Source: a virus. Taken from it: a stretch of 64,000 nucleotides of DNA. A program made the position numbers and the translations under genes. Positions 7,775-28,249 of the stretch are shown here, piece after piece. Location: positions 96,001-160,000 of the IMG/VR virus record IMGVR_UViG_3300045988_120991; one strand, 5' to 3'. The notes under the pieces are model-generated. The model worked only from the letters and a program-made list of their open reading frames with translations. It did not search any database and was not told where the DNA came from. Position 1 is the first letter of the stretch; every line of letters starts with the position of its first letter.

Positions 7775-7776
7775 CT

Positions 7777-11404: not shown

Positions 11405-12280
11405 TTAATGTGCTGCAAGGTCTGCTTCGTGAAGCAAATCCACAGAATTTTTAAGATATGCTGGAAGATTTTTATAACACTTTTCATTTAGAAATGGTGC
11501 CATATGAGTGCTTACAAGCCAAGCAACATCTATTCTGATTTCATCTGCAACAAGACCATATATCATATATGCTCCAACGCATTGATGCTGATAGAAGTGT
11601 GCAGTATCGCTCGGTTCACCTTTTGCATTAACGAATGCTTTGACATATGGTTTACCAACATCGTGAAATGATGCTGCAAGTGCCATAATGTTATCACACA
11701 TATCGTTATTTACAATATACTTATATGCCGACTCACAATGATTGTAAATATCTAAAGTATGATGTGGGTTATCATGTAGAATTCGCATGGCCTCTGTAGA
11801 ATCATCTATGTATTTTTGCATATCAAATCCATCTGGAAAAATGACTCTAATTTTATCAATGCCTTCATCATAATAAGGAGCTTGAAAACGCTTAAGCATT
11901 CTGTCAATAACTTCTTTACCAACAGTACGTTCTCTTGCGGCATCACGTTCAATGCAAGTTTCAATAGGTGCCCAAATAATATGGCATTCAATTTGTGCAA
12001 ACCTTGGGCACTTTGTAATGATGCTAGCTCTATCTTTTCTTGTGATATTTGTAGCATCATAGATGACATCAAAACCATTATTCAATAACATAATTGCTCT
12101 ATCCTGCATCAATGCAAATACATCTGAAGGATTTCCCTGTATATTTTCATCTCCATATAGTTCTTTTCTGATAGCATCAGAAGACAGATGATATGTATAG
12201 CTATTTTTCATTTTTTCTGCATAAGTGGTTTTCCCAGAACCAGGAATTCCACAAAGAAGTATTAGTACAGGTCTAGTCAT
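11405..12280 (-). CDS. P-loop polynucleotide-kinase-like domain fused to an HD phosphohydrolase domain (RNA end-healing candidate)
   Basis: The N-terminus carries Walker A GIPGSGKTTYA. The C-terminus carries HD-domain elements (H...LAASFHDVGKP...H) resembling the HD domains of CCA-adding enzymes. Confidence 0.7.
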   Translation of the reverse strand: MTRPVLILLCGIPGSGKTTYAEKMKNSYTYHLSSDAIRKELYGDENIQGNPSDVFALMQDRAIMLLNNGFDVIYDATNITRKDRASIITKCPRFAQIECHIIWAPIETCIERDAARERTVGKEVIDRMLKRFQAPYYDEGIDKIRVIFPDGFDMQKYIDDSTEAMRILHDNPHHTLDIYNHCESAYKYIVNNDMCDNIMALAASFHDVGKPYVKAFVNAKGEPSDTAHFYQHQCVGAYMIYGLVADEIRIDVAWLVSTHMAPFLNEKCYKNLPAYLKNSVDLLHEADLAAH

Positions 12281-12528: not shown

Positions 12529-14007
12529 TTAATTCTCCTCCTCATTAATCTCTTCTTGTGCTTCTTCCATATCAGGAGTAGTTGCCTCAGCCTTTACTAG
12601 ACCCTCAAGACACTTAAATGCAAAGTTCTTATGTTTATATGCGCAGAATTTAGGCTTATTCACAATACGAACTACTACACCCTCGCGTACATGAATCTTG
12701 CCAATAGGATCGGGGCCATCATAATATTGCTCTGCAATATTTTTAATCCATTCACCAGGGGTCCCTTCACGACAGACTCTCCAAGTGCCATGCTCGCCAT
12801 AACAATCATAACCTTCTTCAAGACCCTCATCAGCGGGGATAAAACCTCTCCACAACATCGGGACACATTTACAACCCATTTGCTCACAACGATAACGCAT
12901 GAAGTCAGGAGAATACTCTACTACATCTCCGTCTTCATTTGTCATAGTCATACGATAAACATAAAAGTCAGACTGAGGAACTTCTCTTTCAGTGATACCA
13001 ATACCTTCTTTGCCGTCTGGATTACAGCCATAAGAGAAAGTCGTAGTCTTACCATACTGCTTCACAAATTCCTTATCATTGAGCTTCTTATTATCAGCGG
13101 TTGCCATAATAGGAGTGCTAGTATGGGTGAACCCAACTACCTCATAGTAGACCTCTTCACCCTTATGTAGTTTGCCCTCAAAGAACTTGGAGTGCTGTTC
13201 GCGGAACTCATTAGAGCCATAGTAGCCGCCATCAAAATTCTCAAGAACGGTACGACGAGTACCAGACACATAGCCCCAATTATAAATAGGAGTTGCAGAA
13301 GAAAGTCCAAGATTCGCGAACTTCTGAGTTATAGCACCAACTTTATCACCAGACATTACCGCATCGAGAGCAGCTTGATAGATACGGTTTGTACATCTGT
13401 AACCCTTAAATACAGGTAAATAGCCGGTGCGCTGAGAAGTACCATGCATCTTTAGAGTGATTTCAATCTGGTCTCCCGCCTGAAAAGCTCCAAGATTATA
13501 GGCTAGCTGTTCAGTATCAGCATGTTCAGTAAACAGAGGTGCGATAGGAACCTTCTTCTTACGAGTATGATTACCATTTGTAGCATGACCACTACGGGTA
13601 TTTCTGCGAGGAATGTACTTAGCGCAAATCTCATGTCCATTGAATGTAGTAATAACATCTCCAACTTTTAGATTGGATACGTCACCAAAAGATTCTAAGC
13701 AAGCCAATGGTAGAAATAGACCATCTGACTTTTCACCACGAAGCCTAATAGAAGTTACATTGCGCTTGTCTGGGTCCATATAACCGCCAATGTTATTACC
13801 ATCTACATCCTTCTTACGAAGCAAATTATTAGTATCTGCAAACTCAACAGAAAGTTGACCATCCGTAGGGAAATATACACCAATCTGACCGTCTGTATAT
13901 TCCATACTTACACAAACCGTATTGCCAAAACACTCACCAAGCTGTAATCTGTCTGCGTTAGGATGCTTACGCAGATTTTTAATTGTTGTTACATACGCAT
14001 TATACAT
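12529..14007 (-). CDS. RNA ligase (Rnl2-like nucleotidyltransferase) with N-terminal tRNA-binding OB domain
   Basis: The N-terminal LRKHPNADRLQLG matches the HPNAD[KR]L hallmark of Trbp111/EMAPII-type tRNA-binding domains. The ligase motifs are I ITLKMHGTS (KxHGT), IV REGVVVRI and V YKHKNFAF. Confidence 0.8.
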   Translation of the reverse strand: MYNAYVTTIKNLRKHPNADRLQLGECFGNTVCVSMEYTDGQIGVYFPTDGQLSVEFADTNNLLRKKDVDGNNIGGYMDPDKRNVTSIRLRGEKSDGLFLPLACLESFGDVSNLKVGDVITTFNGHEICAKYIPRRNTRSGHATNGNHTRKKKVPIAPLFTEHADTEQLAYNLGAFQAGDQIEITLKMHGTSQRTGYLPVFKGYRCTNRIYQAALDAVMSGDKVGAITQKFANLGLSSATPIYNWGYVSGTRRTVLENFDGGYYGSNEFREQHSKFFEGKLHKGEEVYYEVVGFTHTSTPIMATADNKKLNDKEFVKQYGKTTTFSYGCNPDGKEGIGITEREVPQSDFYVYRMTMTNEDGDVVEYSPDFMRYRCEQMGCKCVPMLWRGFIPADEGLEEGYDCYGEHGTWRVCREGTPGEWIKNIAEQYYDGPDPIGKIHVREGVVVRIVNKPKFCAYKHKNFAFKCLEGLVKAEATTPDMEEAQEEINEEEN

Positions 14008-17121: not shown

Positions 17122-18241
17122 ATGTTCTTAACCTTTCAATAAGTTTTTTTAGAATTTTAGCAATGTCAGAAATATCATGCTGATTCAATGTTTCGTCCAA
17201 TGTAATACGAATCGTGCTTAAAGCTTCTGCATCTGTAAGTCCAATAGCTTTTAACGTGCTACTTGGCACAGTCTCCCCACTACTACAAGCAGAACCCGCA
17301 GAGATATAAATCCCACACATACTTGCTAGAGTCACAAGGTCACTAGCTTTTACTCCATCAATACGAACAGAAATATTATTGCACAGACGATTAGTATCAA
17401 GTTCTGGACCATTTAGATGTACTCCAGGAATTTCAAGAATTTTCTTTGCAAGTTCATCCCTATTAAATCTAGTACAAATGTTTGTATAGTCGTGTAACGT
17501 TCCTCTATTAATCTCTAGTGCTTTACCCATAGCTGCTATTGCAGGAGTATTTTCAGTTCCTCCTCGTTTGTGTAATTCTTGACTTCCATAAATAATCGGT
17601 GATAAATCAATTGTATCTTTGCAGTATAAAAATCCTGCACCTCTTCCACCTCTAAACTTCTGTGCTGAAATACTCATCATATCTATTCTAAGCTTATCAA
17701 CATCAATTCTTGATTCAGGGAAATATTGAACGGCATCCACATGTAATATACAATTATATTTATGCGTAATATATGAAATAGATTTAATATCTTGGAGTGT
17801 TCCAATTTCAGAGTTTGCATACTGAATACTAACAATAGAATTATTATGTTCTTTTATTGTATCTTCTAAAATATTTGCATCAATATTTCCAAATTCATCT
17901 ACTGGAATATAATGTACATTAGTAAATTTATGATGATTTAAAATTTCACTAATAGATTTATGCTCTAATTGTGTCGTTATAATAGTGTCAAAATTTGTTC
18001 CACAAAGTGCTAAAGTGTTTGCCTCTACTCCACCACTTGTGAAAATTATTTCTTTAGGTTCACAATTAATGTCTGCTGCAATTTGATCTCTTACATTTTC
18101 AATTATATTTTTAGCATCTTGCCCCATCTCATGAGTCGAAGATGGGTTGCCATAATGATTATACATTACATCGGCAACCACATCTACAACTTCTTTGTAT
18201 GGTTGAGTAGTAGATGCGCAATCTAAAAAGTATTTCTTCAT
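17117..18241 (-). CDS. cysteine desulfurase (class V aminotransferase, NifS/IscS-like)
   Basis: The PLP-lysine region is SISAQKFRGGRGAGFLY and the active-site loop is SAGSACSSG. Confidence 0.85.
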   Translation of the reverse strand: MKKYFLDCASTTQPYKEVVDVVADVMYNHYGNPSSTHEMGQDAKNIIENVRDQIAADINCEPKEIIFTSGGVEANTLALCGTNFDTIITTQLEHKSISEILNHHKFTNVHYIPVDEFGNIDANILEDTIKEHNNSIVSIQYANSEIGTLQDIKSISYITHKYNCILHVDAVQYFPESRIDVDKLRIDMMSISAQKFRGGRGAGFLYCKDTIDLSPIIYGSQELHKRGGTENTPAIAAMGKALEINRGTLHDYTNICTRFNRDELAKKILEIPGVHLNGPELDTNRLCNNISVRIDGVKASDLVTLASMCGIYISAGSACSSGETVPSSTLKAIGLTDAEALSTIRITLDETLNQHDISDIAKILKKLIERLRTS

Positions 18242-18777: not shown

Positions 18778-20007
18778 TTACATATAAATTGGATGTAGTT
18801 CGCATAGTTGACGAGCTATATCGGAGATATATTTCTTATTGCCATCGAAGTCTTTGATGGCCAACGAAATAAGTCCCGCCACATTTCTTGCGTCAAACTT
18901 ATCAAAGCCACGTGTAGTAATTGCGGGAGTCCCAATACGAAGACCACTAGTTACAAATGTGGATAGAGGGTCGTTAGGAATTGAATTTTTATTCGTTGTA
19001 ATGTTTACACTATCGAGCTTCTCCTGTAATTCTTTGCCAGTAATTCCTGTGTCTCTAAGGTCTAGAATCATTAGATGATTATCTGTTCCACCAGAAATAA
19101 GCTTAATGCCGTTTGTTTTAAATACACTTGCCATAGCCTTTGCATTATTAATAACATTATTCTGATATTCTGCAAATTCTGTCTTCAGTGCTTCACCAAA
19201 ACATACTGCCTTTGCTGCAATTATATGTTCTAGTGGACCGCCCTGAGTACCAGGAAATACTGCCGAATCAATCTTCTTTGCAAGTTTACTCTTGCACAAA
19301 ATAACTGCACCACGAGGGCCTCTCATGGATTTATGAGTCGTAAATGTGCAAACATCAGCATAAGGGACAGGACTTGGATGTACACCTCCTGCTACAAGTC
19401 CAGCAATATGCGCCATGTCTACAAAGAGATAAGCGCCTACTTCATCTGCAATTTCACGGAACTTTGCAAAATCAATGATACGCGGATATGCAGAAGCTCC
19501 TGCCAAAATCATCTTAGGCTTGTTATTTAGTGCAAGGTCCCTCACATTATCATAGTCAATAAAGCCATTTTCGCCTACTCCATAACGAACTACGTTAAAG
19601 TACTTGCCAGAAATGTTGAATGGTGCTCCGTGACTGAGATGCCCACCAGCAGAAAGATCCATGGACAGAACGGTATCACCAGGGGATAATAGTGCATAAA
19701 ATACTGCCAAATTTGCGCTTGCTCCTGAATGCGGCTGCACGTTTGCATGTTCTGCTCCAAATAGCTTTTTACAACGTTCAATTGCAAGAAGTTCTACTTC
19801 ATCAATATACTGACATCCACCATAGTATCTCGCATGAGGCTTTCCTTCTGCGTATTTATTGGTTAGAACAGATGACATTGCGTCAAGAACTGCTGGAGAC
19901 ACAATGTTTTCTGATGCAATAAGTTCGATTGTACCACGCTGCCTGTTAAGTTCTTTCAAACAAATATCGTATACTTCTACATCTTGCTTTTTTAGGTTGT
20001 CTAGCAT
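18778..20007 (-). CDS. glyA: serine hydroxymethyltransferase
   Basis: It shows full-length SHMT similarity, including the PLP-lysine motif [12 protein letters not shown] moved the start to ATG 20007 (AAGGAG 8 nt upstream); the track start at 20016 is GTG. Confidence 0.95.
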
Positions 20008-20025
20008 TATATTCACTCCTTACTT

Positions 20026-20052
20026 AAAAATAGGGGAGACTTTCGTCTCCCC
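20026..20052 (-). terminator. rho-independent terminator closing the tRNA operon
   Basis: The minus strand reads GGGGAGAC-GAAA-GTCTCCCC followed by TATTTTT. Confidence 0.7.
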
Positions 20053-20055
20053 TTA

Positions 20056-20131
20056 TGGAGCACGTGACGAGGCTTGAACTCGCAACAGCCAGATTGGAAA
20101 TCTGGAACTCTACCAATTGAGCTACACGTGC
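20056..20131 (-). tRNA. tRNA-Gly(UCC)
   Basis: Acceptor GCACGTG/CACGTGC, anticodon loop TTTCCAA, T-arm GCGAG-TTCAAGC-CTCGT, CCA encoded. Confidence 0.9.
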
Positions 20132-20136
20132 ATTTG

Positions 20137-20213
20137 TGGTACACCTTGAAGGACTCAAACCTTCGACCTTCTGATCCGTAGTCAGACGTTCTATTCAACT
20201 GAACTAAAGGTGC
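20137..20213 (-). tRNA. tRNA-Arg(ACG)
   Basis: Acceptor GCACCTT/AAGGTGT, anticodon loop CTACGGA, T-arm GAAGG-TTTGAGT-CCTTC, CCA encoded. Confidence 0.9.
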
Positions 20214-20218
20214 ATATA

Positions 20219-20293
20219 TGGTGCCCGTGGAGAGATTCGAACTCTCGACTCACGGCTTAAAAGGCCGTTACTCTACCACTGAGTTACACGAGC
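20219..20293 (-). tRNA. tRNA-Lys(UUU)
   Basis: Acceptor GCTCGTG/CACGGGC, anticodon loop CTTTTAA, T-arm GAGAG-TTCGAAT-CTCTC, CCA encoded. Confidence 0.9.
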
Positions 20294-20296
20294 ATA

Positions 20297-20373
20297 TGGT
20301 CGGAGTGCAGGGGCTTGAACCCTGGGCCTCTAGATCCCAAATCTAGCGCTCTACCAAACTGAGCTACACCCCG
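20297..20373 (-). tRNA. tRNA-Pro(UGG)
   Basis: Acceptor CGGGGTG/CACTCCG, anticodon loop TTTGGGA, T-arm CAGGG-TTCAAGC-CCCTG, CCA encoded. Confidence 0.9.
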
Positions 20374-20378
20374 AAATG

Positions 20379-20455
20379 TGGCACCCCGTGTTGGACTCAA
20401 ACCAACGACACATGGCTTAGAAGGCCATTGCTCTGTTCAACTGAGCTAACGGGGC
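20379..20455 (-). tRNA. tRNA-Arg(UCU)
   Basis: Acceptor GCCCCGT/ACGGGGT, anticodon loop CTTCTAA, T-arm GTTGG-TTTGAGT-CCAAC, CCA encoded. Confidence 0.9.
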
Positions 20456-20460
20456 ATATA

Positions 20461-20555
20461 TGGCGCCGAGGGTGGGATTCGAACCCACGGGCCGAATATA
20501 AATCGGCACACAAGATTTCAAGTCTAGGCGCTTATGACCACTTGCGCACCTCGGC
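20461..20555 (-). tRNA. tRNA-Ser(UGA), type II
   Basis: Acceptor GCCGAGG/CCTCGGC, anticodon loop CTTGAAA, long variable arm GCCGA-TTTATAT-TCGGC, T-arm GTGGG-TTCGAAT-CCCAC, G73, CCA encoded. Confidence 0.85.
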
Positions 20556-20668
20556 ATATTAACTTTGTAATCCCAAACTCCTCCACACAGATTACTGGGC
20601 ACCCCTTACCTCGAATGCTAGTTAGTAGCAACAAACGTTTGTGCCGTTTCCACAAATAAAGATACACC

Positions 20669-20863
20669 TCACTGCGTATTAACCTCTGTATATTCAGTAC
20701 TAGATAAGGTAATCATTCTTTCGCATCCGTCCTGTGGACAAAAAATATTTGCAACCCCAAGATTATTTATTCCGTCAGACGGATTAAATGCAAATTCACA
20801 ACCACAATAAGGGCAGATTGCCTTATAGGTCTTAACTTTGCCTCCCTTGATAATATACTTCAT
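20669..20863 (-). CDS. small zinc-ribbon protein (64 aa) inside the tRNA operon
   Basis: ATG 20863 follows GAGGTGTTATT. It contains CPYCGC...CPQDGC. Confidence 0.55.
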   Translation of the reverse strand: MKYIIKGGKVKTYKAICPYCGCEFAFNPSDGINNLGVANIFCPQDGCERMITLSSTEYTEVNTQ

Positions 20864-20874
20864 AATAACACCTC

Positions 20875-20994
20875 TTAATTAAACTTGTTCAACTGCCGCT
20901 TAACTTTACGGATAAGGCCCTCGTTCATAGTCTCGCCTCGTGCCAAAAGCTTTGCTAGACGATTTTCATAATGTTCCTTAGTGCGAAAGTTCAT
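20875..20994 (-). CDS. small basic protein (39 aa), not in track
   Basis: ATG 20994 follows TTTAGGAGGTACATATT. The translation is MNFRTKEHYENRLAKLLARGETMNEGLIRKVKRQLNKFN. Confidence 0.45.
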   Translation of the reverse strand: MNFRTKEHYENRLAKLLARGETMNEGLIRKVKRQLNKFN

Positions 20995-21020
20995 AATATG
21001 TACCTCCTAAAATTTTTGTA

Positions 21021-21143
21021 TGGCAGGGGTAGTAGGGTTCGAACCTACGATGCGGGAGTCTGGTCAAGGTAGTTGGTACTGCCCCAACTAAATTCACTTG
21101 AATACCTTGAAAGTCCCGTGCCTTACCACTTGGCTATACCCCT
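21021..21143 (-). tRNA. tRNA-Gln(UUG) interrupted by a 49-nt insert in the anticodon loop
   Basis: The structure is AGGGGTA-TA-GCCAAGTGGTAAGGC-A-CGGGA-[CTTT|49 nt|GAC]-TCCCG-CATC-GTAGG-TTCGAAC-CCTAC-TACCCCT-G-CCA. The Gln-like D-arm, weak 1:72 pair and G73 support the Gln assignment. Confidence 0.7.
21061..21109 (-). other. 49-nt intervening sequence in tRNA-Gln
   Basis: The sequence is CAAGGTATTCAAGTGAATTTAGTTGGGGCAGTACCAACTACCTTGACCA. It forms the P1 helix TCAAGGTA/TACCTTGA, the hairpin GTTGG-GGCAGTA-CCAAC and an 11-nt tail ending GACCA. Confidence 0.65.
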
Positions 21144-21146
21144 ATA

Positions 21147-21221
21147 TGGTGGATCTGACGTGACTCGAACACGCAACTTCTTCCTTGCAAGGGAAGCTTT
21201 CTCCCATTGAAATACAGACCC
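21147..21221 (-). tRNA. tRNA-Ala(UGC)
   Basis: Acceptor GGGTCTG/CAGATCC with G3:U70, anticodon loop CTTGCAA, T-arm GCGTG-TTCGAGT-CACGT, CCA encoded. Confidence 0.9.
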
Positions 21222-21383
21222 AGATTTTATGAGATAGCTACACTATGTATACCTAATGTAGCTATTAGGTTTTCTAACTCCTCACCTCAAACCATTTTTA
21301 TCTGTCTCTCCTCTTAGCCAATCAGATTTGAGTGACTTGAACGGACCGCCGTCCTCACATTGATAAAATAGTAAAATCAACAA

Positions 21384-21474
21384 TGGCGCGATAGGAAGGC
21401 TTCGAACCTTCGCACGGCTTTCACCGCCTAGCAGATTAGCAATCTACCCTCTTCAACCACTTGAGTACTACCGC
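21384..21474 (-). tRNA. tRNA-Ser(GCU), type II
   Basis: Acceptor GCGGTAG/CTATCGC, anticodon loop TTGCTAA, long variable arm, T-arm GAAGG-TTCGAAG-CCTTC, G73, CCA encoded. Confidence 0.85.
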
Positions 21475-21477
21475 ATA

Positions 21478-21681
21478 TTAATCTAATGTTCTTCCAGTTG
21501 CTAATTCAAAAATTAAATTATCAACACAGGGAATGTGCATTGCCTCTATCTCATATTGAGTACGATGTTCAATGTCATTAATATAGATAGGACAATCTTT
21601 ACATTCTACATTTTCACAAAAACGAACAGCTTTTTCTACTATTTTAGAATTCGCAAATTTTATATATTCTTCCCAACGCAT
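21478..21681 (-). CDS. hypothetical Cys-containing protein (67 aa) inside the tRNA operon
   Basis: I trimmed the track ORF to ATG 21681 (GGAGGATTTT upstream). Confidence 0.5.
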   Translation of the reverse strand: MRWEEYIKFANSKIVEKAVRFCENVECKDCPIYINDIEHRTQYEIEAMHIPCVDNLIFELATGRTLD

Positions 21682-21701
21682 AAAATCCTCCATAAAACGA
21701 G

Positions 21702-21730
21702 CAGTTTATACAGTGATACTCAGCACTATC
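21702..21730 (-). repeat. 29-nt repeat copy 1 (CAGTTTATACAGTGATNNNCAGCACTNTC on the plus strand)
   Basis: It matches 22095..22123 at roughly 25 of 29 positions by eye. Both copies lie just 3' of a tRNA on the minus strand. Confidence 0.6.
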
Positions 21731-21753
21731 CCACGGTCCCAATCGAGCTTTTC

Positions 21754-21828
21754 TGGAGCTGATGGAGAATTTCGAAATCTCGACCTAGTGATTACAAATC
21801 ACTCGCTCTGCCTCTGAGCTACACCAGC
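21754..21828 (-). tRNA. tRNA-Thr(UGU)
   Basis: Acceptor GCTGGTG/CATCAGC, anticodon loop TTTGTAA, T-arm GAGAT-TTCGAAA-TTCTC (one mismatch), CCA encoded. Confidence 0.85.
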
Positions 21829-21935
21829 AGATCTCCTCGTCTTTCCGAGGTGTCAATCGCACTTTTACATTAATAATCTTAAATTATTCTTTAATAGGAA
21901 GATGACGCCAATCTTGTGTGATTACCTTTTATGTG

Positions 21936-22004
21936 AGGTCTTAATTGGAATCGAACCAACACCTGCCCCACCACGGGGCCGATCTACCATTGAACTATAA
22001 GACC
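21936..22004 (-). tRNA. atypical tRNA, probably His(GUG); short anticodon loop and no encoded CCA
   Basis: The structure is GGTCTTA-TA-GTTC-AATGGTA-GATC-G-GCCCC-GTGGT-GGGGC-AGGT-GTTGG-TTCGATT-CCAAT-TAAGACC-T. The GTG is central in a 5-nt loop (or a 7-nt loop if the closing pair opens). Positions -1 (A) and 73 (U) could pair. Confidence 0.5.
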
Positions 22005-22006
22005 TA

Positions 22007-22083
22007 TGGTGACGCTACCGGGGATCGAACCCGGACACTCCACGGTGAAAGCGTGGTAACTCTACCAATTCGTCCATAGCGCC
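22007..22083 (-). tRNA. tRNA-Glu(UUC)
   Basis: Acceptor GGCGCTA/TAGCGTC, anticodon arm CCACG-CTTTCAC-CGTGG, T-arm CCGGG-TTCGATC-CCCGG, CCA encoded. Confidence 0.85.
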
Positions 22084-22094
22084 ATATCTTTGGA

Positions 22095-22123
22095 CAGTTT
22101 ATACAGTGATGTCCAGCACTGTC
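22095..22123 (-). repeat. 29-nt repeat copy 2
   Basis: See 21702..21730. The minus strand can fold as ACAGTG-CTGGACAT-CACTGT. Confidence 0.6.
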
Positions 22124-22134
22124 ACTTTTGGGAG

Positions 22135-22219
22135 TGGTAGCGGTGGTGGGCTACGATCCCACACGTCATAAGACATTGGTTTTTGAGACCAACCTGTCTG
22201 CCTGTTCCAGCACACCGCC
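22135..22219 (-). tRNA. tRNA-Leu(CAA), type II
   Basis: Acceptor GGCGGTG/CACCGCT, Leu-type D-loop GGAACAGGCAGAC, anticodon arm TTGGT-CTCAAAA-ACCAA, T-arm GTGGG-ATCGTAG-CCCAC, A73, CCA encoded. Confidence 0.8.
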
Positions 22220-22426
22220 ATATTAAGCACAACCTACATAGAGCTAGCCTCGCTCACACTTGCTTTCCCGAACACTTCCCACCCTCGGTTATGCTTTGTT
22301 ATTGTTTATCCTATTTTCACAATAACATATGCCTCGTTCTCTTCTCGTTACTATGGGTTAGTAACTTAGTAGCTTTTCTCTTGTGGATAGCACTTATCAA
22401 TACACCGAGAACCCCAATAGGCGGCA

Positions 22427-22502
22427 TGGTTGCGAAGTTCTGGAATCGAACCAGATTCTGATAGCTTATGAGACTACCTGAGATTCCTACCTCCCACTCG
22501 CA
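22427..22502 (-). tRNA. tRNA-Met-like (CAU) with imperfect acceptor stem
   Basis: Anticodon arm GTAGT-CTCATAA-GCTAT, T-arm TCTGG-TTCGATT-CCAGA, 3' end CTTCGCA-A-CCA. The acceptor pairs only if one C is bulged or two pairs are mismatched. Confidence 0.5.
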
Positions 22503-22586
22503 TTATCTAGCAGACTACAATGCCGTCTGCTAGGGCATTAGAAAGAGGTGATGCCTATAACCAAGGCTCTGAACTTGTCATTCAGA

Positions 22587-22736
22587 TGGTCCCCCACCGG
22601 TGGATTGAACACCGAACCTCCCGATTATTTGTCACTACAGTAAGTCCTGCCCTTACATTACTGATTATCCTTCAGTGGTGTTGCTTTTACACTATGTAGT
22701 GAAGTCGGGTGCTCTAGCCAGTTGAGCTAGCAGGGG
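22587..22736 (-). tRNA. tRNA-Ile(UAU) interrupted by a 73-nt insert in the anticodon loop
   Basis: The structure is CCCCTGC-TA-GCTC-AACTGGCTA-GAGC-A-CCCGA-[CTT|73 nt|ATAA]-TCGGG-AGGTT-CGGTG-TTCAATC-CACCG-GTGGGGG-A-CCA. Confidence 0.65.
22629..22701 (-). other. 73-nt intervening sequence in tRNA-Ile
   Basis: The sequence is CACTACATAGTGTAAAAGCAACACCACTGAAGGATAATCAGTAATGTAAGGGCAGGACTTACTGTAGTGACAA. It forms the P1 helix TCACTACA/TGTAGTGA, the hairpin GTAAG-GGCAGGA-CTTAC and an 11-nt tail ending GACAA. Confidence 0.65.
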
Positions 22737-23034
22737 ACATATAATCCGGCTTTTACGGTACGCCCAATAAGATGGACACGCTTGAATTTCACAATTGCCA
22801 TCAAAGTGCCTGATGACTAACACCCAATATGAAGCCTTGATATCATTGCTTCTAAGTCGTTATTGGGAACAACAGATGGTAATGATAGCAAGCGAAGCCG
22901 CGCATGACTCCATTTCACAGTGCTTCATCAACTACTTTTGGCATTTCTAATTATTATCGGTGCAGGTAGCTAATCCTGTAACGGCTTATCCTCATTGATT
23001 ATCTCCTATGAAATTTGCACTACTTACTATCATT

Positions 23035-23119
23035 TGGTGGGCCAGGGTGGTGCCGACCCACCTACTCCCGAAGGAAACGGATTTACAGTCCGCCGCAGTT
23101 GCCGATTTGCTACTGACCC
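23035..23119 (-). tRNA. tRNA-Tyr(GUA), type II
   Basis: Acceptor GGGTCAG/CTGGCCC, anticodon arm GCGGA-CTGTAAA-TCCGT, variable arm TCC-TTCG-GGA, T-arm GGTGG-GTCGGCA-CCACC, CCA encoded. Confidence 0.8.
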
Positions 23120-23446
23120 ATATAGCTATACTTTTTAACTTGGGCAAGAAGTATAGTGAAACTTGCCAGACGATCAAACCTTCATCCACATGGGAGCCAC
23201 ACGCAGTTCGTCCGTAGTATGTGGTTTTAATGTTTGAGTTGGTTCGCTACACCAACTCCGACTGACTTGCAATCGCACTATTTTCTCTACAATTGGCCTT
23301 TGCACTACATTCGCACCCTAGTGCATTAACCTTCCTATATAGTGAACTTCCCTTTCATTTTCTGCTTCGAGAACCAATCGCTTGTTCTCTACTCCAAGAC
23401 TTTGGACGGGAGATGGGGCGGTAGTTTAATGACTTGCCAAGGTCGA

Positions 23447-23579
23447 TGGTGCGGGTAGCGAGACTTGAACTCGCACGGATATTTCACCGAGGGATTTTTG
23501 GTGAGTATTGTAGGTGCTGCCCCTACCAAAGCACTGGCTATACCCAAGTCCCTTGTGTCTGCCATTCCACCATACCCGC
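23447..23579 (-). tRNA. tRNA-Leu(UAA), type II, interrupted by a 47-nt insert in the anticodon loop
   Basis: The structure is GCGGGTA-TG-GTGGAATGGCAGACAC-A-AGGGA-[CTT|47 nt|AAAA]-TCCCT-CGGTGAAATATCCGT-GCGAG-TTCAAGT-CTCGC-TACCCGC-A-CCA. The Leu-type D-loop and A73 support the Leu assignment. Confidence 0.75.
23499..23545 (-). other. 47-nt intervening sequence in tRNA-Leu(UAA)
   Basis: The sequence is GGGTATAGCCAGTGCTTTGGTAGGGGCAGCACCTACAATACTCACCA. It forms the P1 helix TGGGTAT/ATACTCA (one G:U pair), the hairpin GTAGG-GGCAGCA-CCTAC and an 11-nt tail ending CACCA. Confidence 0.65.
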
Positions 23580-23627
23580 ATATCACAGGGCAGCTTTAAG
23601 GTGATGCCCAGCACCATACTTAACTCC

Positions 23628-25181
23628 TTAAGAGTTCTTCAATGCGGCTTCCACCGCATCATATCTATCACTCATAAGCGTCTCAACGAGGCACTCATAA
23701 GGATTGGTCTTACCACTCATAACCATCTTGCAGACATTAGTGGAGAATCCACTAACAAGAGCAACACCAAGGTCATTCTCCTTTATAGGAATAGTTCCAG
23801 TGCGAGAATTTACATTCCAGAAGACTAGTCTAGGCATCTGATACCCAGCATCCTCGAAACGCTTCTTGATTACCTTAAAAAGTTTTGCATTAGGTCTATT
23901 AAGACCATATCTAGCGGAACCGTCACAAGTTGCACAAGAGTCAAACTCCATATCTGAAATAATCAGTACGTTCTTAGGCATATCCTCTTGCTTCATATGA
24001 CCATTCACCGCAGTAGTAAGAATCAAATCAAACACCTTTTCAATGTTTGTATTTGAACACTCGTCATGACCATATGCAACACGTAACTTATCTCTCAGAG
24101 AATCGCACTGACTAAAATCAACCAACTGAGGTCTGCTAGAGAAAGTAATGTATTTATCCTTAAAGTCTCCAGAAGAATGTTCTGCAAAGTAAATCGCAAG
24201 TGCATTTGCAACTTCAAGTGCAGTAACACGGCTACTTCCACCAACGTTGCAACACATAGAACCAGAGCCATCTGCAACTACAATGGTGTTTCCACATTCA
24301 TTTACTGTGTTAGGCAAAGCTTTCCAAAGAGATTCAAGAGTTGCATCGTATTTGCCGATACCGCCGTACCATCCAGTTGCACTAGAATACTTATGCACAA
24401 TGTCGTGAGGGAACAAAGTTCCAGCATTAATCTTAGTTTCGCCCTTTTCAAGCTTACTCAGATACTCTCTGCGACGCTCCTCATCATTACGAAGGAAAGC
24501 TCCGTTATAAATGAGATTTGCACGAGAAGGAACTGTTTCGTACTTAATGTCTCCCCATTTCTTTGCAGACATCTTGCCCTCTACAATATCAATGTAAGAA
24601 CGCAGAGAAGAAAGTGTCTTACGATACTCACGCTCAGTCATACCAAGATTCTTGCAAATGTATCTTGCATCCATCTTAGTTTTTGCAGAAGAAGCATTCA
24701 CAGAAGGAAGCCACTTGGCAAGAAGAGATACGGGCTTATTATCAGCCATATTTGCAATATCATCAGTGAGCTGCTTTTTGATGATGTCAAAAATAATACC
24801 ATCTACGTCTGTACCAAACAGACACCACAGGTCATCATAACGACCATACTCACTCACCAGAGGAGCAAGATGCTTAACAATATCAACGTCATCCTTTGCC
24901 ATATTCTTAATAATCGCTCTGAACAAACGTCTTTCACCAAGACCACCACGAACATCTCTGGCGAAGAACAGCCAACGTAGAGCCATCATTTTATCTTCAA
25001 AATAAGCCTTAGTAAACTTATTATAGATATTCTCCTCACTCATACCACGCATAGAAGAAACTGCAAAGTTTAGGTCAACCAGTTCCTTACCAGAGGTACG
25101 ATACCCAAGAGCGCCATTCTCAGTTACTGAATAGTTGAAATCCTCGTTCAGAGTATTCTTTACTGCATTCATAAAAGACAT
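23628..25181 (-). CDS. DUF2828-like protein: helical N-domain plus C-terminal vWA domain with MIDAS motif (Ro60/TROVE-like architecture)
   Basis: I trimmed the track ORF to ATG 25181 (TGGAGGAAAGAAA upstream). The N-terminus reads NYSVTENGALGYRTSGKELVDLNF...RDVRGGLGER. The vWA MIDAS motif is VVADGSGSM. Confidence 0.6.
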   Translation of the reverse strand: MSFMNAVKNTLNEDFNYSVTENGALGYRTSGKELVDLNFAVSSMRGMSEENIYNKFTKAYFEDKMMALRWLFFARDVRGGLGERRLFRAIIKNMAKDDVDIVKHLAPLVSEYGRYDDLWCLFGTDVDGIIFDIIKKQLTDDIANMADNKPVSLLAKWLPSVNASSAKTKMDARYICKNLGMTEREYRKTLSSLRSYIDIVEGKMSAKKWGDIKYETVPSRANLIYNGAFLRNDEERRREYLSKLEKGETKINAGTLFPHDIVHKYSSATGWYGGIGKYDATLESLWKALPNTVNECGNTIVVADGSGSMCCNVGGSSRVTALEVANALAIYFAEHSSGDFKDKYITFSSRPQLVDFSQCDSLRDKLRVAYGHDECSNTNIEKVFDLILTTAVNGHMKQEDMPKNVLIISDMEFDSCATCDGSARYGLNRPNAKLFKVIKKRFEDAGYQMPRLVFWNVNSRTGTIPIKENDLGVALVSGFSTNVCKMVMSGKTNPYECLVETLMSDRYDAVEAALKNS

Positions 25182-25219
25182 TTTCTTTCCTCCATTTTTT
25201 TGATTTATTTCTAAATCCC

Positions 25220-25420
25220 AAGACACATTATTATGTACAATCTCCACATTAAAAATTTGCTGTTAGTGTCTTTGGAGTTTATTCAACGAGACGCCAAAAT
25301 AAAACCATTAGTAAAAATATCATTTTCATCTTTTTAAATTGCTGTAAGCGTCTCTATGTAAGGCAAGGCACCATCAATATAAATCCATATCATATTATGT
25401 AAAGTTGCTGTTAGTGCCTT
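25220..25420 (-). ncRNA. three tandem hairpin units in the 5' leader of the DUF2828-like gene
   Basis: There are three perfect 7-bp stems: AAGGCAC/GTGCCTT (25365..25420), GAGACGC/GCGTCTC (25288..25354) and AAGACAC/GTGTCTT (25220..25272). Each loop opens with T[AT]ACAGCAA-N-TTT. Confidence 0.55.
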
Positions 25421-25426
25421 TTTAAA

Positions 25427-25544
25427 GTCTCCTGACAGGACTTGAACCTGCGACCTCTGGTTTAACAGACCAATTAGAAACTTGCTGTTTAAGGCTTTTA
25501 CAAGTCTCGTTATTAAGCGCTCTATCCGACTGAGCTACAGGAGA
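25427..25544 (-). tRNA. tRNA-Asn(GUU)-like element with a 44-nt insertion between the D-arm and anticodon stem; no encoded CCA
   Basis: The structure is TCTCCTG-TA-GCTC-AGTCGGATA-GAGC-G-[44 nt, 25474..25517]-TTGGT-CTGTTAA-ACCAG-AGGTC-GCAGG-TTCAAGT-CCTGT-CAGGAGA-C. Confidence 0.55.
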
Positions 25545-25582
25545 CATATTTATGAGCAGTTTAACGAGGTGCTCGGCTCACT

Positions 25583-25628
25583 TTAATTTTGTACTGTGAT
25601 TATACCACAGATTACTTATTTTGTCAAG
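25583..25628 (-). promoter_or_regulatory. sigma-70-type promoter with conserved box; likely promoter of the tRNA / DUF2828 operon
   Basis: The minus strand reads CTTGACAAAATAAGTAATCTGTGGTATAATCACAGTACAAAATTAAAGTGAGCC. Confidence 0.75.
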
Positions 25629-25741
25629 TACTTTTTTACTTTTTATTCCAGAGAAGCCATCCACAAGCAACTCCGAACAAGAAACATACAATTTCCTTCA
25701 TCTTTACTTCTTCCTTATTATACCATATTCGGCATCATTTG

Positions 25742-26092
25742 TCAAGCATTTTCTCGATTTTTTCTTGTGCAATTTACTCGATTGCAGAACTCAAACATTG
25801 CTGCATTAAGATCCTCTGCAAACTCATCACACTTGGTATCCAGTGCTGCATAGTACCGATCCAGAAGCTTCGCCTTTGCCATCTTCATACCAATAGCAGG
25901 ATCATACTCATCATCAGGATGACACACGACAACCGCACGATAAGAACTACTCATCAGGTACTTACTAGGATCGAAGCACAGAGATTTGGTCTGTCCCATA
26001 ATCTTTGCAATCTTATGGATAGCATCATACTTCGTGTTCTCAAGAACCGCAATGGTCTTGTTCTGCTCCGGCACATGTACAAACTTAATCAT
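25742..26092 (-). CDS. hypothetical protein (116 aa)
   Basis: ATG 26092 follows AAGAAAGGATAACAAAA. A CHPDDEYDPAIGMKMAKAK motif is present, but I do not know its function. Confidence 0.55.
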   Translation of the reverse strand: MIKFVHVPEQNKTIAVLENTKYDAIHKIAKIMGQTKSLCFDPSKYLMSSSYRAVVVCHPDDEYDPAIGMKMAKAKLLDRYYAALDTKCDEFAEDLNAAMFEFCNRVNCTRKNRENA

Positions 26093-26112
26093 TTTTGTTA
26101 TCCTTTCTTGTT

Positions 26113-26158
26113 TTAATTTTGTATTGTGATTATAACATGCTTTCTTGAACTTGTCAAG
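26113..26158 (-). promoter_or_regulatory. sigma-70-type promoter with conserved downstream box
   Basis: The minus strand reads CTTGACAAGTTCAAGAAAGCATGTTATAATCACAATACAAAATTAAAACAAGAAAGGA. Confidence 0.75.
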
Positions 26159-26205
26159 CCCTTTTTAACCATCCCGGTAAAGGTTCTTGCCTCATTCATT
26201 GTTTG

Positions 26206-26236
26206 TATTATAGCGCATTAATTTTGTTTTGTCAAG
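26206..26236 (-). promoter_or_regulatory. second, tandem promoter with the box inside the spacer
   Basis: The minus strand reads CTTGACAAAACAAAATTAATGCGCTATAATACAAAC (TTGACA, 17-nt spacer, TATAAT). Confidence 0.6.
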
Positions 26237-27380
26237 TATCTTTTTTAAATAATTTTCTAGTTTCTTCATAAGACAGGTACTTAATATTAATGCCCGTCAA
26301 ATTCAGCAGTTTTTCATTTTTAAACTCGTTAACATGAGTTACTGCAAGAGATACCTCATAGGCAATATCCCCAATGTCTTCCTTAATTCTTTGCATAAGC
26401 TCACCAACATCAAGATGCCCATACCGAATGGACCCCTGATACTGGTTTGTAATATTGGTCTTGTCATCAATGTTAATGTTAATCTCCGACTTATCACATT
26501 CACATTCAAAGTCACCAGCACCATGCTTCGTCATATATGTTCTAGTAACATAGCACACTTCAACGTTTGCATTAGGTAAATACTTTTCAATGATTATATG
26601 AGGATTTGCAATGCCAGTATTGCTAGGAGTCGTATTATCATAATACTGAACATGACGCTGATCCAACAGCAATCCTTGCCCATTTTCAAATACGACATTA
26701 TCAAACTTTTGCAAAATCCTACTATAATCAAATACTACATGAGAATGCATAAACTGCGCATCGTCAATAAAGTTATAAATCAAATTGTCGGATGCCAAAA
26801 TATCTTCCCATTCCTGCAAAACTTCAGGACTAGCCTTTAGCAGCCTCTTAGACGTATATTCATCCCTGACACGCTTAAGAAATGCGACCTGCTCGTCCTT
26901 AGTCATATTATAGAACTGCTGGAAAGACGGGCTTGTAGTATTCCTATATCTAAGAACAGTTTCCCAAATACCCATACCACAAGAGCCATACCGATTTTTG
27001 CCACGACTATCCTCAAGGATTTGATTTGTAATCATATCATATGGAGTAGACCATCTGCAATTCCAATGACTATAAACACGAGGTGCATAGCCTAATGCCT
27101 TCAATTCCTCGTACTCTTTTCTAAAAGTCATAGGGTTTAGAATATACTCTTCCCCAAAATAAGTATCTGCTCCCGCAAAGGTTCCTGAACCAAAATGGTG
27201 GAACACATGTCTAATGCCATCTGGAGTAACTACAGTATGTCCTCTTTGTGCGCCGCCATTGCATAGAGCAACGATACAAGATTCATTCCGCTTACTTGCT
27301 TCGGCACAAAAGTAATCGGTCATCAGACCTTTTCCCTCGTCGCCAAAGTTGCTACCAATTACTACCTTAACATTAGACAT
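26232..27380 (-). CDS. adenylosuccinate synthetase family protein, divergent (PurA-like; PurZ candidate)
   Basis: I trimmed the track ORF to ATG 27380 (AAAGGATAAACAC upstream). It has the P-loop GSNFGDEGKG, then NGGAQRGHTVV (compare PurA GGHNAGHT), and the equivalent of the GTTGRGIG block reads YGSCGMGIWET. Confidence 0.75.
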   Translation of the reverse strand: MSNVKVVIGSNFGDEGKGLMTDYFCAEASKRNESCIVALCNGGAQRGHTVVTPDGIRHVFHHFGSGTFAGADTYFGEEYILNPMTFRKEYEELKALGYAPRVYSHWNCRWSTPYDMITNQILEDSRGKNRYGSCGMGIWETVLRYRNTTSPSFQQFYNMTKDEQVAFLKRVRDEYTSKRLLKASPEVLQEWEDILASDNLIYNFIDDAQFMHSHVVFDYSRILQKFDNVVFENGQGLLLDQRHVQYYDNTTPSNTGIANPHIIIEKYLPNANVEVCYVTRTYMTKHGAGDFECECDKSEININIDDKTNITNQYQGSIRYGHLDVGELMQRIKEDIGDIAYEVSLAVTHVNEFKNEKLLNLTGINIKYLSYEETRKLFKKDT

Positions 27381-27394
27381 GTGTTTATCCTTTC

Positions 27395-28249
27395 TTACCA
27401 AGAAATACCTTCACTAGATGTTGCTACATTGCCACCAGAAAACGCATTGGTGACAATATCAATGATGTCATCTGCAATCTTATCAATAGACGTATCCTTC
27501 AGATGGTTCTCGTCCAGAAGCAGCCCAAAAGTCCTATGAACGGCCTCATGATAACGACCATAACCATGCTTAACATACAGATGATAAATGTCAAACTTCT
27601 CAGACGCATTAGCGTAAAGCTGTGCCGTTTCAACATCGCTCTGTAGATTATCACCAGTTACTGCGGATAGAGCCTTCTTCGGCAGATATGGATTCATAGG
27701 CTCGTCACCCATAGTGATAATGACACCCTTCTGTCCACGATTCCAGCAATCTAGCTTCGTGTGATTAAGACCGAAATACCATGCGGCGCTATAAGACTCA
27801 TAATCATTGCCTCCACCACCGCCCTCAAAATAAATCTTATCAAGCTGTTCTGCGATGCGGATATCAGACTCAAACTGTGATGCCTGAATAGGAGCGCAAT
27901 CGTAAGCAAGATCCCCAATGCCCATAACCATGAACTCTACGTCTGCGATATTCTCGTATAGCTTAGTCATTACTACATTGATCTGCTTTGCAACTTCCAT
28001 AGCCGCCTTGCCCATGCTACCAGTTACATCGAGTGCCAGAATAACAGGCTTGGTATTAGGATGTTCCACAGAGTCAACACACTCACGCATTACATTCTTA
28101 GGATTAAGGTCTGCTACTAGCATTTTAGATTTAAAATTGTCCTGCACATTAGAGGACATTCCAGTGACTACACCATCCATTGATACGCTGTACCCCTTGG
28201 TAGTCGCATAAGTGGTAAAAGCATTTTTAGTCCAACTGCCACCGCCCAT
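27395..28249 (-). CDS. vWA-domain protein
   Basis: It has the MIDAS motif LALDVTGSMG and an alpha/beta pattern typical of vWA domains. Confidence 0.7.
   Translation of the reverse strand: MGGGSWTKNAFTTYATTKGYSVSMDGVVTGMSSNVQDNFKSKMLVADLNPKNVMRECVDSVEHPNTKPVILALDVTGSMGKAAMEVAKQINVVMTKLYENIADVEFMVMGIGDLAYDCAPIQASQFESDIRIAEQLDKIYFEGGGGGNDYESYSAAWYFGLNHTKLDCWNRGQKGVIITMGDEPMNPYLPKKALSAVTGDNLQSDVETAQLYANASEKFDIYHLYVKHGYGRYHEAVHRTFGLLLDENHLKDTSIDKIADDIIDIVTNAFSGGNVATSSEGISW

Follow-up and report, generated by a model that had tools for sequence, protein, structure and literature searches.

How can a phage make tRNAs for glutamine, isoleucine and leucine from genes whose anticodon loops are broken by short inserts? 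The question is raised by a 64,000-nt stretch of viral DNA (IMG/VR record IMGVR_UViG_3300045988_120991, positions 96,001 to 160,000; hereafter, the window), where three tRNA genes on the minus strand are each interrupted within the anticodon loop. The inserts are themselves derived from tRNAs. Judging from sequence comparisons, we give a probability of roughly 0.55 to the reading that RNase P and an RNase Z-type enzyme would cut the nested element out and that a phage-encoded RNA ligase would seal the exons.

The outer genes encode tRNA-Gln(UUG) (21143..21021; 5′ exon 21143..21110, 3′ exon 21060..21021, with an encoded GCCA 3′ end), tRNA-Ile(UAU) (22736..22587; 5′ exon 22736..22702, 3′ exon 22628..22587) and tRNA-Leu(UAA) (23579..23447; 5′ exon 23579..23546, 3′ exon 23498..23447). 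Read on the minus strand, the two halves of the 5-bp anticodon stem lie 56 (Gln), 80 (Ile) and 54 nt (Leu) apart; these positions and spacings, like the amino acid identities, agree with an earlier note made from the letters of this DNA. Without introns, ARAGORN reports 14 tRNAs in the window and overlooks all three interrupted genes; with introns it recovers them, and calls Glu, Arg and Pro where Gln, Ile and Leu are expected, because the program assumes canonical intron positions. The Rfam tRNA model runs across the insert in the Gln gene, with 56.9 bits, and in the Leu gene, with 42.5 bits. Once the inserts are removed, the loops read CUUUGAC (Gln), CUUAUAA (Ile) and CUUAAAA (Leu). No further Gln, Ile or Leu-UAA tRNA gene was found in the window by either ARAGORN mode, as the earlier note had also claimed, and in the open reading frames (ORFs) of the window 17% of Leu codons are UUA, 14% of Ile codons AUA and 57% of Gln codons CAA. 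Two perfect sigma-70 promoters lie upstream of the tRNA array (25745-25717 and 25627-25599, minus strand), and a strong intrinsic-terminator-like hairpin (20053-20032, minus strand; nine pairs, six of them G-C, then a T run) directly follows its last tRNA. Together they are consistent with long precursor transcripts covering the array, and the hairpin suggests that the array closes a long transcription unit.

For comparison, we collected about 240 related phage loci (labelled L below): 65 through the neighbouring DUF2828/DUF7788 gene (49–98% protein identity), 53 more through the RNA ligase gene and a further 119 through the hairpin pattern of the inserts. Some of these phages carry insert-less alleles. 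The joined Leu exons of the window (CUU|AAAA) agree at every one of their 86 positions with an uninterrupted tRNA-Leu(UAA) that occupies the same site, with the same flanks, in L005 and L007, and the joined Gln exons are identical at 70 of 74 positions to uninterrupted tRNA-Gln genes (L007, L002); the nearest uninterrupted tRNA-Ile(UAU) is about 80% identical (L047). By reading of the sequences, a one-base shift of either junction no longer yields the uninterrupted loop in Leu and Gln, so the junctions of these two genes are unambiguous. The insert-less alleles thus match the single cutting rule put forward in the earlier note, which places the junctions at 35/36 in Gln and at 34/35 in Ile and Leu, and at the DNA level the insert, as read from them, is exactly the segment from '+1' to 'CCA'.

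The layout of that segment is the same in all three genes: 7 nt, a variable part, a 5-bp stem with a 7-nt loop, 7 nt complementary to the first seven, one nucleotide (N) and CCA, which is CAA in the Ile insert. This is the architecture of the top half of a tRNA, with acceptor stem, T arm, discriminator and CCA. The 49-nt Gln insert (21109..21061, minus strand, between positions 35 and 36, CUUU|GAC) consists of an acceptor-like 5′ strand (21109..21103), a vestigial hairpin, a T-arm-like hairpin (21088..21072, GTTGG-GGCAGTA-CCAAC), the acceptor 3′ strand (21071..21065), a discriminator A (21064) and CCA (21063..21061). The 73-nt Ile insert (22701..22629, minus strand, between positions 34 and 35, CUU|AUAA) is cloverleaf-like: its acceptor 5′ strand (22701..22695) is followed by D-arm-like and anticodon-arm-like hairpins, a T-arm-like hairpin (22656..22640, GTAAG-GGCAGGA-CTTAC), the acceptor 3′ strand (22639..22633), A (22632) and CAA (22631..22629). 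The Leu insert, of 47 nt (23545..23499, minus strand, between positions 34 and 35, CUU|AAAA), has its acceptor 5′ strand at 23545..23539, a vestigial hairpin (GC-CAGT-GC), a T-arm-like hairpin (23526..23510, GTAGG-GGCAGCA-CCTAC), the acceptor 3′ strand at 23509..23503, A at 23502 and CCA at 23501..23499.

In the order Gln, Ile and Leu, the terminal helix forms 7/7, 7/7 and 6/7 pairs, and a perfect 5-bp hairpin with the loop GGCAGNA abuts the acceptor 3′ strand in each insert. Each insert holds one copy of the sequence GGGCAGNAC, and these three are the only copies in the 64 kb. The earlier note had recognized both this hairpin and the 11-nt tail behind it, which resolves into 7 + 1 + 3 nt and ends in ACCA (Gln), ACAA (Ile) and ACCA (Leu). 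A terminal helix of at least 6/7 pairs, an abutting hairpin with a 5-bp stem and a 7-nt loop, and a C[CA]A end occurred together in 1, 0 and 0 of 200,000 shuffles of each insert, and the products of the single-feature frequencies in the shuffles are about 1e-6 to 3e-6 per insert. Two features described in the earlier note are parts of a tRNA. The pairing that it called P1 is real, and its 8 bp comprise the acceptor stem of 7 bp and a pair that U(-1) could form with the discriminator A; the cut site that it placed 3 nt past this helix is likewise right, and the tRNA anatomy that it missed makes those 3 nt the CCA.

In minimum-free-energy folds, the Gln and Ile precursors form the outer cloverleaf with the nested helices, and the Ile insert makes a four-way junction inside the outer anticodon loop. 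Where a tRNA has its D and anticodon arms, the Gln and Leu inserts have a 12–14-nt stub; the Ile insert folds as a cloverleaf whose anticodon-like loop, AGGAUAA, lacks U33, and on this modelled structure it is a degenerate cloverleaf. The window inserts therefore have the acceptor stem, T arm and N-CCA of a tRNA and lack its full cloverleaf, and because their D and anticodon arms are incomplete we regard them as tRNA-derived, not as tRNAs. A pairing of GGCAGNA with the CUGCC 3′ end of the outer tRNA works by eye for the Gln gene only and was dropped as a coincidence.

The same nested arrangement is widespread among the relatives. In the first 118 loci plus the window, ARAGORN with introns reported 198 interrupted tRNA-like genes, and of the 55 that are true tRNAs interrupted in the anticodon loop (class A) all except one fit a strict rule: the insert has at least 6/7 acceptor pairs, 5/5 T-stem pairs, a 7-nt loop, N and C[CA]A, and the outer tRNA is left with a loop of exactly 7 nt closed by 5/5 anticodon-stem pairs. 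The 55th misses the rule solely by a point change in the helix. A scan of all loci with the rule, on both strands, yields about 55 distinct inserts, borne by tRNAs of the types Leu-UAA, Ile-UAU, Gln-UUG, Lys-UUU and Thr-UGU and by one CUA suppressor. The insertion point varies (32/33, 34/35, 35/36 or 36/37), and excision from +1 to CCA always restores CUUNNNA; among the structural matches, 61 loops start with CTT and at most 21 with any other triplet. The inserts end in CCA in 54 of 64 distinct matches and in CAA in the other ten, and position -1 is U in 53 of the 64.

To these counts the relatives add covariation. Over 28 distinct cores, the 12 acceptor and T-stem pairs are 98.8% paired, a percentage that is partly built in and to that extent weakens the case, since the structural scan demanded pairing; the covariation, the register specificity and the ARAGORN-based count are not built in, and mitigate this bias. 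Compensatory changes in the helix of related phages, whose absence would by the earlier note have spoken against the finding, are present: 42 extra pair types are seen, and double changes fill 141 cells where shuffles give 39.6 ± 6.5; none of 500 shuffles reaches either figure. Both sides have changed in 11 of the 12 pairs, namely all seven of the acceptor stem and four of the five of the T stem, and G53:C61 changes on one side only. When the 3′ partners are slid by 1–3 columns, pairing falls to 40–47%. The equivalent of G53 is invariant and those of C61 and C56 are at least 90% conserved, all three being near-universal positions of the T arm, and the loop occurs as GGCAGNA, GTCATCA/GTTATCA, TGCAAGN and genuine TTCRANN. 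For instance, the Gln insert of L005 has compensatory changes in its acceptor helix (CAGGGTA/TACCCTG). The Ile inserts of relatives have the acceptor helices CTCCTCA/TGAGGAG, CGCTGCA/TGCAGCG and CATCGTA/TACGATG, with GCCA ends, and the Leu inserts GCTGATA/AATCAGT, CGTCGAT/ATCGACG, GTTCGAG/CTTGAGC and GGTAGAT/ATCTACC.

Depending on the phage, the orthologous Gln gene carries an insert of the GGCAGTA type at 35/36, of the GTCATCA type at 34/35, of a 93-nt TGCAAGA type at 34/35 or of an 85-nt type at 35/36; such different inserts at different positions point to repeated independent insertions. Carriers whose anchor protein is only 64–98% identical to that of the window preserve the outer cloverleafs and their 5-bp anticodon stems by compensatory changes, and the insert-bearing Leu genes show at least six anticodon stems that differ in sequence and are paired. 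These compensatory changes argue against dead genes.

In several relatives, the nested element is a complete tRNA. A 74-nt canonical tRNA-Asn(GUU) with CCA lies inside tRNA-Lys(UUU) in L016 (6024-6097; Rfam 57 bits), a nesting found also in L017 and L020 (L020 5723-5796). A CUA tRNA lies inside tRNA-Ile(UAU) at 36/37 in L005 (12170-12246), L006 (12179-12255) and L069 (2517-2591); this tRNA is amber-suppressor-like and is labelled 'Pyl' by ARAGORN, and its L069 copy scores 54.6 bits with Rfam. For the nested complete tRNAs, the plain mode of ARAGORN and the Rfam tRNA model give the same boundaries. The inserts thus form a series from the complete tRNA through the degenerate cloverleaf (window Ile) to a 47–49-nt minihelix with a stub (window Leu and Gln), every member of which keeps the acceptor stem, T arm, N73 and CCA. 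At L200 (1988-2062), an insert of the GGCAGTA type interrupts an outer tRNA with the restored loop CUCUAAA; its anticodon is CUA, so that an amber-suppressor tRNA also carries such an intron.

Many free-standing phage tRNA genes likewise have GGCAGNA as their T loop, together with a short D loop of 7 nt, which makes it a variant of the T loop and not a motif specific to the inserts. We had entertained a protein-binding or catalytic role for GGCAGNA, and gave it up because free-standing tRNAs carry the same loop. Such genes occur, for example, in L127 (~5488-5515) and L133 (~7442-7469), with dozens more in L122-L239; they have the D loop A[AT][AC]AGTA and normal anticodon loops (Met, Gln, Trp, Asn and others). 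Outside class A the GGCAGNA pattern has 87 matches, from many different metagenomes; not one overlaps a gene called by ARAGORN, and a minority fall within coding sequence. The free-standing genes look like a class of tRNAs with a non-canonical elbow, which is the apparent source of the GGCAGNA-type inserts.

The tRNA anatomy of the inserts points to RNase P and RNase Z, not to self-cleavage or self-splicing. In the proposed mechanism, RNase P would take the nested element for a pre-tRNA and cleave at insert +1, leaving the outer 5′ exon with a U-3′OH, and an RNase Z-type endonuclease would cleave directly after the nested CCA, giving the outer 3′ exon a 5′-phosphate. The outer cloverleaf would keep the exons together, with a 3′-OH/5′-PO4 break within the 7-nt anticodon loop. 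The phage ATP-dependent ligase (12529-14007) would then close this break, with no healing step needed, to produce tRNA-Gln(UUG), tRNA-Ile(UAU) and tRNA-Leu(UAA); the freed element would be a by-product in the window and a second, apparently functional tRNA in some relatives. We infer the cutting enzymes, the end chemistry and the occurrence of ligation. RNase P and RNase Z both leave 3′-OH and 5′-phosphate ends, which are fit for an ATP-dependent ligase. To RNase P, the insert would present the anatomy of a minimal substrate, with a 12-bp stack of acceptor and T stems, a 3′-NCCA and a single-stranded leader, the leader being 1–6 nt of the outer loop plus the 5′ exon. An acceptor/T-arm minihelix with 3′-NCCA is said to have been the classic minimal RNase P substrate since the work of McClain, Guerrier-Takada and Altman in 1987, and U(-1) is reportedly, on the word of Zahler et al. 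in 2003, the leader base that bacterial RNase P favours. In precursors that contain CCA, the RNase Z enzymes of B. subtilis and of two archaea place most of their cuts (70–90% of sites) immediately 3′ of it, and the enzymes of T. maritima and E. coli do the same; for the archaeal pair an acceptor stem by itself suffices as substrate, but the 5′ end has to be matured first (PMC7479834).

The candidate exon sealer is encoded about 7 kb downstream of the tRNA array, at 12529..14007 on the minus strand. Its product is an ATP-dependent RNA ligase of the DraRnl/NgrRnl-like kind, with an N-terminal OB domain and a nucleotidyltransferase domain. The Pfam matches to PHA02142 OB and RNA_ligase are both weak; there are PDB matches to the Naegleria RNA ligase (NgrRnl) and T4 Rnl2, a match to PHROG 968 'RNA ligase' at 4e-62 and a partial match to TIGR02306. 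Ligase motifs I, IV and V are present (KMHG, EGVVV and KHK), and the protein is 47–48% identical to annotated RNA ligases of large Bacillus phages. The adjoining gene (11405..12280, minus strand) encodes an HD-Pnk-type end-healing enzyme that combines a P-loop 5′-OH polynucleotide kinase with an HD phosphoesterase (Pfam AAA_33 at 1.7e-26 and HD; P-loop GIPGSGKT and HD motifs; PDB matches to Pnkp1 and to the kinase domain of C. thermocellum Pnkp; a partial match to TIGR04075, bacterial Pnkp). That the products of these two genes might act on the interrupted tRNAs, as the earlier note proposed, is reasonable, and both genes are present in all nine insert-bearing loci where the region is visible.

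Ligase and HD-Pnk belong to an RNA-repair module that also comprises the DUF2828/DUF7788 protein and a Thg1-like 3′-5′ polymerase; its genes in the window, all on the minus strand, are 6941-7774, 11405-12280, 12529-14007 and 23628-25247. The module recurs in more than 50 of the fetched loci, including L024, L027 and L066-L114, and in most of the loci that share it the flanks seen are free of nested inserts. We rejected the ligase as a specific marker of the inserts for this reason, ligase and HD-Pnk being common in insert-less relatives, as far as their flanks were seen. The picture fits an older system for the repair of anticodon loops that makes such insertions tolerable.

Several observations weigh against excision by RNase P and RNase Z followed by ligation. 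Many relatives have both ligase and HD-Pnk and show no nested insert in the flanks examined, so the pair is not specific to the inserts. Host enzymes must be assumed for the cuts, since the window has no RNase P- or RNase Z-like gene: no ORF resembling RNase P, RNase Z, EndA, RtcB or a CCA enzyme was found with Pfam, PHROGs or NCBIfam among the roughly 60 ORFs scanned in this 64-kb window, which belongs to a phage whose relatives span about 150–170 kb. A Bacillota host is probable, the nearest cultured relatives being phages of Bacillus and Geobacillus, and CCA strongly inhibits the RNase Z of B. subtilis in Mg2+ (PMC7479834); the 3′ cut may therefore need another enzyme. The window Ile insert is among the ten of the 64 distinct matches that end in CAA instead of CCA. 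The bias towards U(-1) could come simply from U-rich anticodon loops. Finally, an HD-Pnk beside the ligase would be expected if the ends were a 2′,3′-cyclic phosphate and a 5′-OH, which would point to a different nuclease.

The adjacent HD-Pnk, the inhibition by CCA and the CAA ends are why we keep a heal-and-seal variant as the main rival, one that we nevertheless consider unlikely. Here a dedicated nuclease of phage or host would read the tRNA-like element and cut one or both junctions by transesterification, HD-Pnk would heal the resulting 2′,3′-cyclic phosphate and 5′-OH ends, and the ligase would seal them, much as in yeast tRNA splicing or in the T4 PrrC/Pnkp/Rnl1 system. The HD-Pnk gene lies directly beside the ligase gene and the two stay paired across relatives, CCA inhibits the RNase Z of a Bacillota model organism in Mg2+, and several ORFs near the tRNA array are without a family assignment, all of which would suit such a nuclease. 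However, none of the roughly 60 ORFs scanned in the window is a candidate for it, and the complete nested tRNAs need RNase P at their 5′ end in any case in order to function. The boundaries, moreover, are the exact ends of a mature tRNA, which RNase P and RNase Z explain without an extra factor.

It is also possible, though quite improbable in our estimation, that no splicing takes place: the inserts would then be selfish or accidental tRNA-derived insertions that inactivate the outer tRNAs, or the outer halves would serve as a scaffold or a source of tRNA halves from which the nested element alone is released. Some close relatives have an insert where others have none, which suggests that inserts were gained or lost recently, and several inner elements are genuine tRNAs that require release only. 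Against this stand the outer cloverleafs and anticodon stems, kept with compensatory changes in divergent phages, and the fact that removal always restores a 7-nt CUUNNNA loop despite the varying insertion point. The minimal inserts of 47–49 nt have no evident function of their own and yet keep the acceptor, T and CCA features, and the interrupted genes are the sole source of their anticodons in the window.

A self-cleaving or self-splicing RNA, in which the insert would be a small ribozyme such as a miniature group I-like intron, seems to us very improbable. The 5′ junction does follow a U, as in group I introns, and the Leu-UAA insertion site, U34|A35, is what we take to be the site of the cyanobacterial tRNA-Leu group I intron. 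The inserts, however, measure only 47–73 nt, against about 200 nt or more for a group I intron, and lack its catalytic core (P3-P8, G-binding site); beyond the helices, their conservation is limited to G53:C61, C56 and the CCA end; the loop exists in several unrelated variants (GGCAGNA, GTCATCA, TTCRANN and TGCAAGA); and some inserts are ordinary complete tRNAs, which are not catalytic. Rfam searches of the tRNA array, at gathering thresholds and at E<=1 (the latter over 19500-26500), returned no intron or ribozyme family, only tRNA matches and weak chance matches, and at E<=1 no match in the array to hammerhead, twister, pistol, hatchet, HDV or hairpin ribozymes. The earlier note took the inserts for neither group I nor bulge-helix-bulge (BHB) introns, which holds, and recognized in them no described intron or ribozyme class; these Rfam searches and our literature searches, incomplete in coverage, likewise found no such family or description. 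Least probable of all is an archaeal-type BHB intron removed by an EndA-like endonuclease and RtcB, for although the inserts lie in the anticodon loop and archaeal BHB introns are known at non-canonical positions, neither the sequence nor the predicted folds contain two 3-nt bulges spaced by a 4-bp helix, one junction sits at the foot of a 7-bp helix and the other 4 nt past the opposite strand, no EndA or RtcB homologue is found among the scanned window ORFs, and the relatives of the phage infect bacteria.

Excision by RNase P and RNase Z followed by ligation would share parts with several known systems. As in archaeal and eukaryotic splicing by EndA/TSEN with RtcB or Trl1, an intervening sequence in the anticodon loop would be removed by protein enzymes while the tRNA body holds the halves and a ligase rejoins them, and the gene for an end-healing kinase/phosphoesterase accompanies that of the ligase, which recalls the Trl1 pathway. 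The signal here, in contrast, is a mimic of the acceptor stem, T arm and CCA instead of a BHB; the junctions range from 32/33 to 36/37 instead of lying at 37/38; the setting is a bacteriophage; and the predicted cutters, RNase P and RNase Z, would leave 3′-OH and 5′-P, whereas EndA gives 2′,3′>P and 5′-OH. The group I introns of cyanobacterial tRNA-Leu(UAA) and Azoarcus tRNA-Ile likewise break a tRNA anticodon loop of the bacterial world after a U, but those are self-splicing ribozymes of about 200–250 nt with a P1-P9 core, and the inserts have 47–73 nt and tRNA anatomy. T4 repair by PrrC, Pnkp and Rnl1 also concerns a break in the anticodon loop of U34 tRNAs and uses a phage ligase with a polynucleotide kinase-phosphatase, the same enzyme pair as is encoded here. 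The T4 break, however, is damage inflicted by the host, whereas here it would be programmed by the phage's own gene, with a segment that must go, and the ligase here is of another family, DraRnl/NgrRnl-like with an N-terminal OB domain.

In tRNA punctuation and related processing signals (mitochondrial polycistrons, MALAT1 mascRNA, plant t-elements and engineered tRNA-gRNA arrays) a tRNA or tRNA-like fold similarly guides RNase P and RNase Z to free the RNAs on either side with precision; the flanks here differ in being halves of another tRNA that need rejoining, so that the signal would act as an intron and not as a spacer. The split tRNAs of Nanoarchaeum and the permuted tRNAs of Cyanidioschyzon have an equally odd gene layout that needs cutting and rejoining, but they use BHB motifs and the splicing endonuclease, and in none is a tRNA nested within a tRNA.

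Full-text literature searches, whose coverage is incomplete so that a prior description elsewhere is possible, found no account of a tRNA or tRNA-like element nested in an anticodon loop. Conditional on proof at the RNA level, the nested inserts look like an undescribed kind of intron. That they represent a third route of tRNA splicing, in bacteriophages, in which a nested tRNA or its mimic is the intron, RNase P and RNase Z excise it and a phage repair ligase rejoins the 3′-OH and 5′-P ends, we hold to be slightly short of an even bet. If spliced as predicted, the inserts would add to the list of introns (group I, group II, spliceosomal and BHB) a type that is signalled by the shape of a tRNA and removed by enzymes present in every cell. 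One transcript segment would yield two working tRNAs in some phages (Asn inside Lys; a CUA suppressor inside Ile), and phage RNA-repair ligases would gain a constitutive, biosynthetic job beyond repairing the damage of anticodon nucleases. The maturation of tRNAs for A-ending codons and of suppressor tRNAs would depend on the phage ligase, which could be a device for timing or for evading host defence; that U34 and suppressor tRNAs are tied to the ligase for this end, or that their anticodon loops are hidden in this way from host anticodon nucleases, is speculation. The series from full tRNA to minihelix shows the parts needed for processing and could be used as a natural deletion experiment on recognition by RNase P and RNase Z, and for engineering the inserts would offer a compact natural analogue of tRNA-flanked cassettes, by which the maturation of a tRNA or small RNA could be made ligase-dependent. 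Because standard tRNA finders without intron models miss these genes and ARAGORN with such models mis-assigns their anticodons, phage tRNA repertoires, arguments from codon usage and searches for suppressor tRNAs in recoded phages are biased.

Megablast of the tRNA array against 50,697 phage records found no near relative. By protein, large Bacillus/Geobacillus phages come closest, as does a human-faecal contig; stretches of about 40 kb from each of two of these records, PBC2 and MT835469, contained no tRNAs, and no cultured model was found among them. The matches listed from a scan of genome contigs with the hairpin pattern include no nested insert and give no clue to the host; most of them fall in coding sequences (Streptococcus; a GWGSTYG-type motif) or are free-standing tRNA-like genes. 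In metagenome-assembled genomes of Obscuribacterales/Melainabacteria (L241, L247, L251, L285, L290, L303, L317 and others), a conserved non-coding context with the hairpin GUUGG-GGCAGCA-CCAAC followed by CUGCG recurs in many Obscuribacter-like genomes; it has the look of a structured RNA and does not represent a nested tRNA insert.

The tally of 18 tRNA genes in the earlier note included one at 25545..25426 (minus strand), which is a different interrupted tRNA-like RNA. We rejected it as a member of the nested class: it lacks an insert with helix, T arm and CCA, and belongs instead to a family with a CAGCAA motif (class B). It scores 42.3 bits with the Rfam tRNA model and has, in place of the anticodon arm, a covarying hairpin followed by an invariant CAGCAA. 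The family accounts for 126 ARAGORN calls in the 118 loci and the window, and it comprises 86 distinct tRNA-like RNAs. Most of these lie 0–2 kb upstream of the DUF2828/DUF7788 gene, whose product belongs to PHROG 850 'RNA-binding protein', and a phage may have up to four of them in tandem. The CAGCAA RNA may be a Y-RNA-like partner of the DUF2828/DUF7788 protein; the Rfam YrlA model does not match the RNA at 25545..25426. Together with the RNA-repair module, it presumably resembles the bacterial Ro/Y-RNA/RtcB operons.

Two further unusual tRNA-like genes were seen among the relatives. In L003 (14410-14486; equivalents in L004 and L006, six copies), a tRNA has three extra nucleotides in its anticodon loop (ccagg-GAATTTTAA-ccctgg); ARAGORN calls it 'tta' with a 3-nt intron, and it may be an expanded-loop suppressor or frameshift tRNA. 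L104 has a tRNA-like call with a 265-nt insert (6978-7321), for which Rfam gives no group I intron call, next to an abiF-motif RNA (7340-7376, 41 bits) and a full-length ROOL RNA (7610-8184, 299 bits).

Elsewhere in the window, on the minus strand, lie genes for a PurA/PurZ-like adenylosuccinate synthetase (26232-27401), an HD-domain protein (14920-15696), SHMT (18778-20016) and a class-V aminotransferase (17117-18241). The PurA/PurZ-like protein is divergent and far below family cut-offs (32.8 bits with the PurZ model, against a cut-off of 300), and this nucleotide-metabolism set might be tied to DNA base modification. Homing-type endonuclease genes of the GIY-YIG (SegE-like, with NUMOD domains; 34218-35507) and HNH (41206-41823) kinds are also present on the minus strand, and neither adjoins the interrupted tRNAs.

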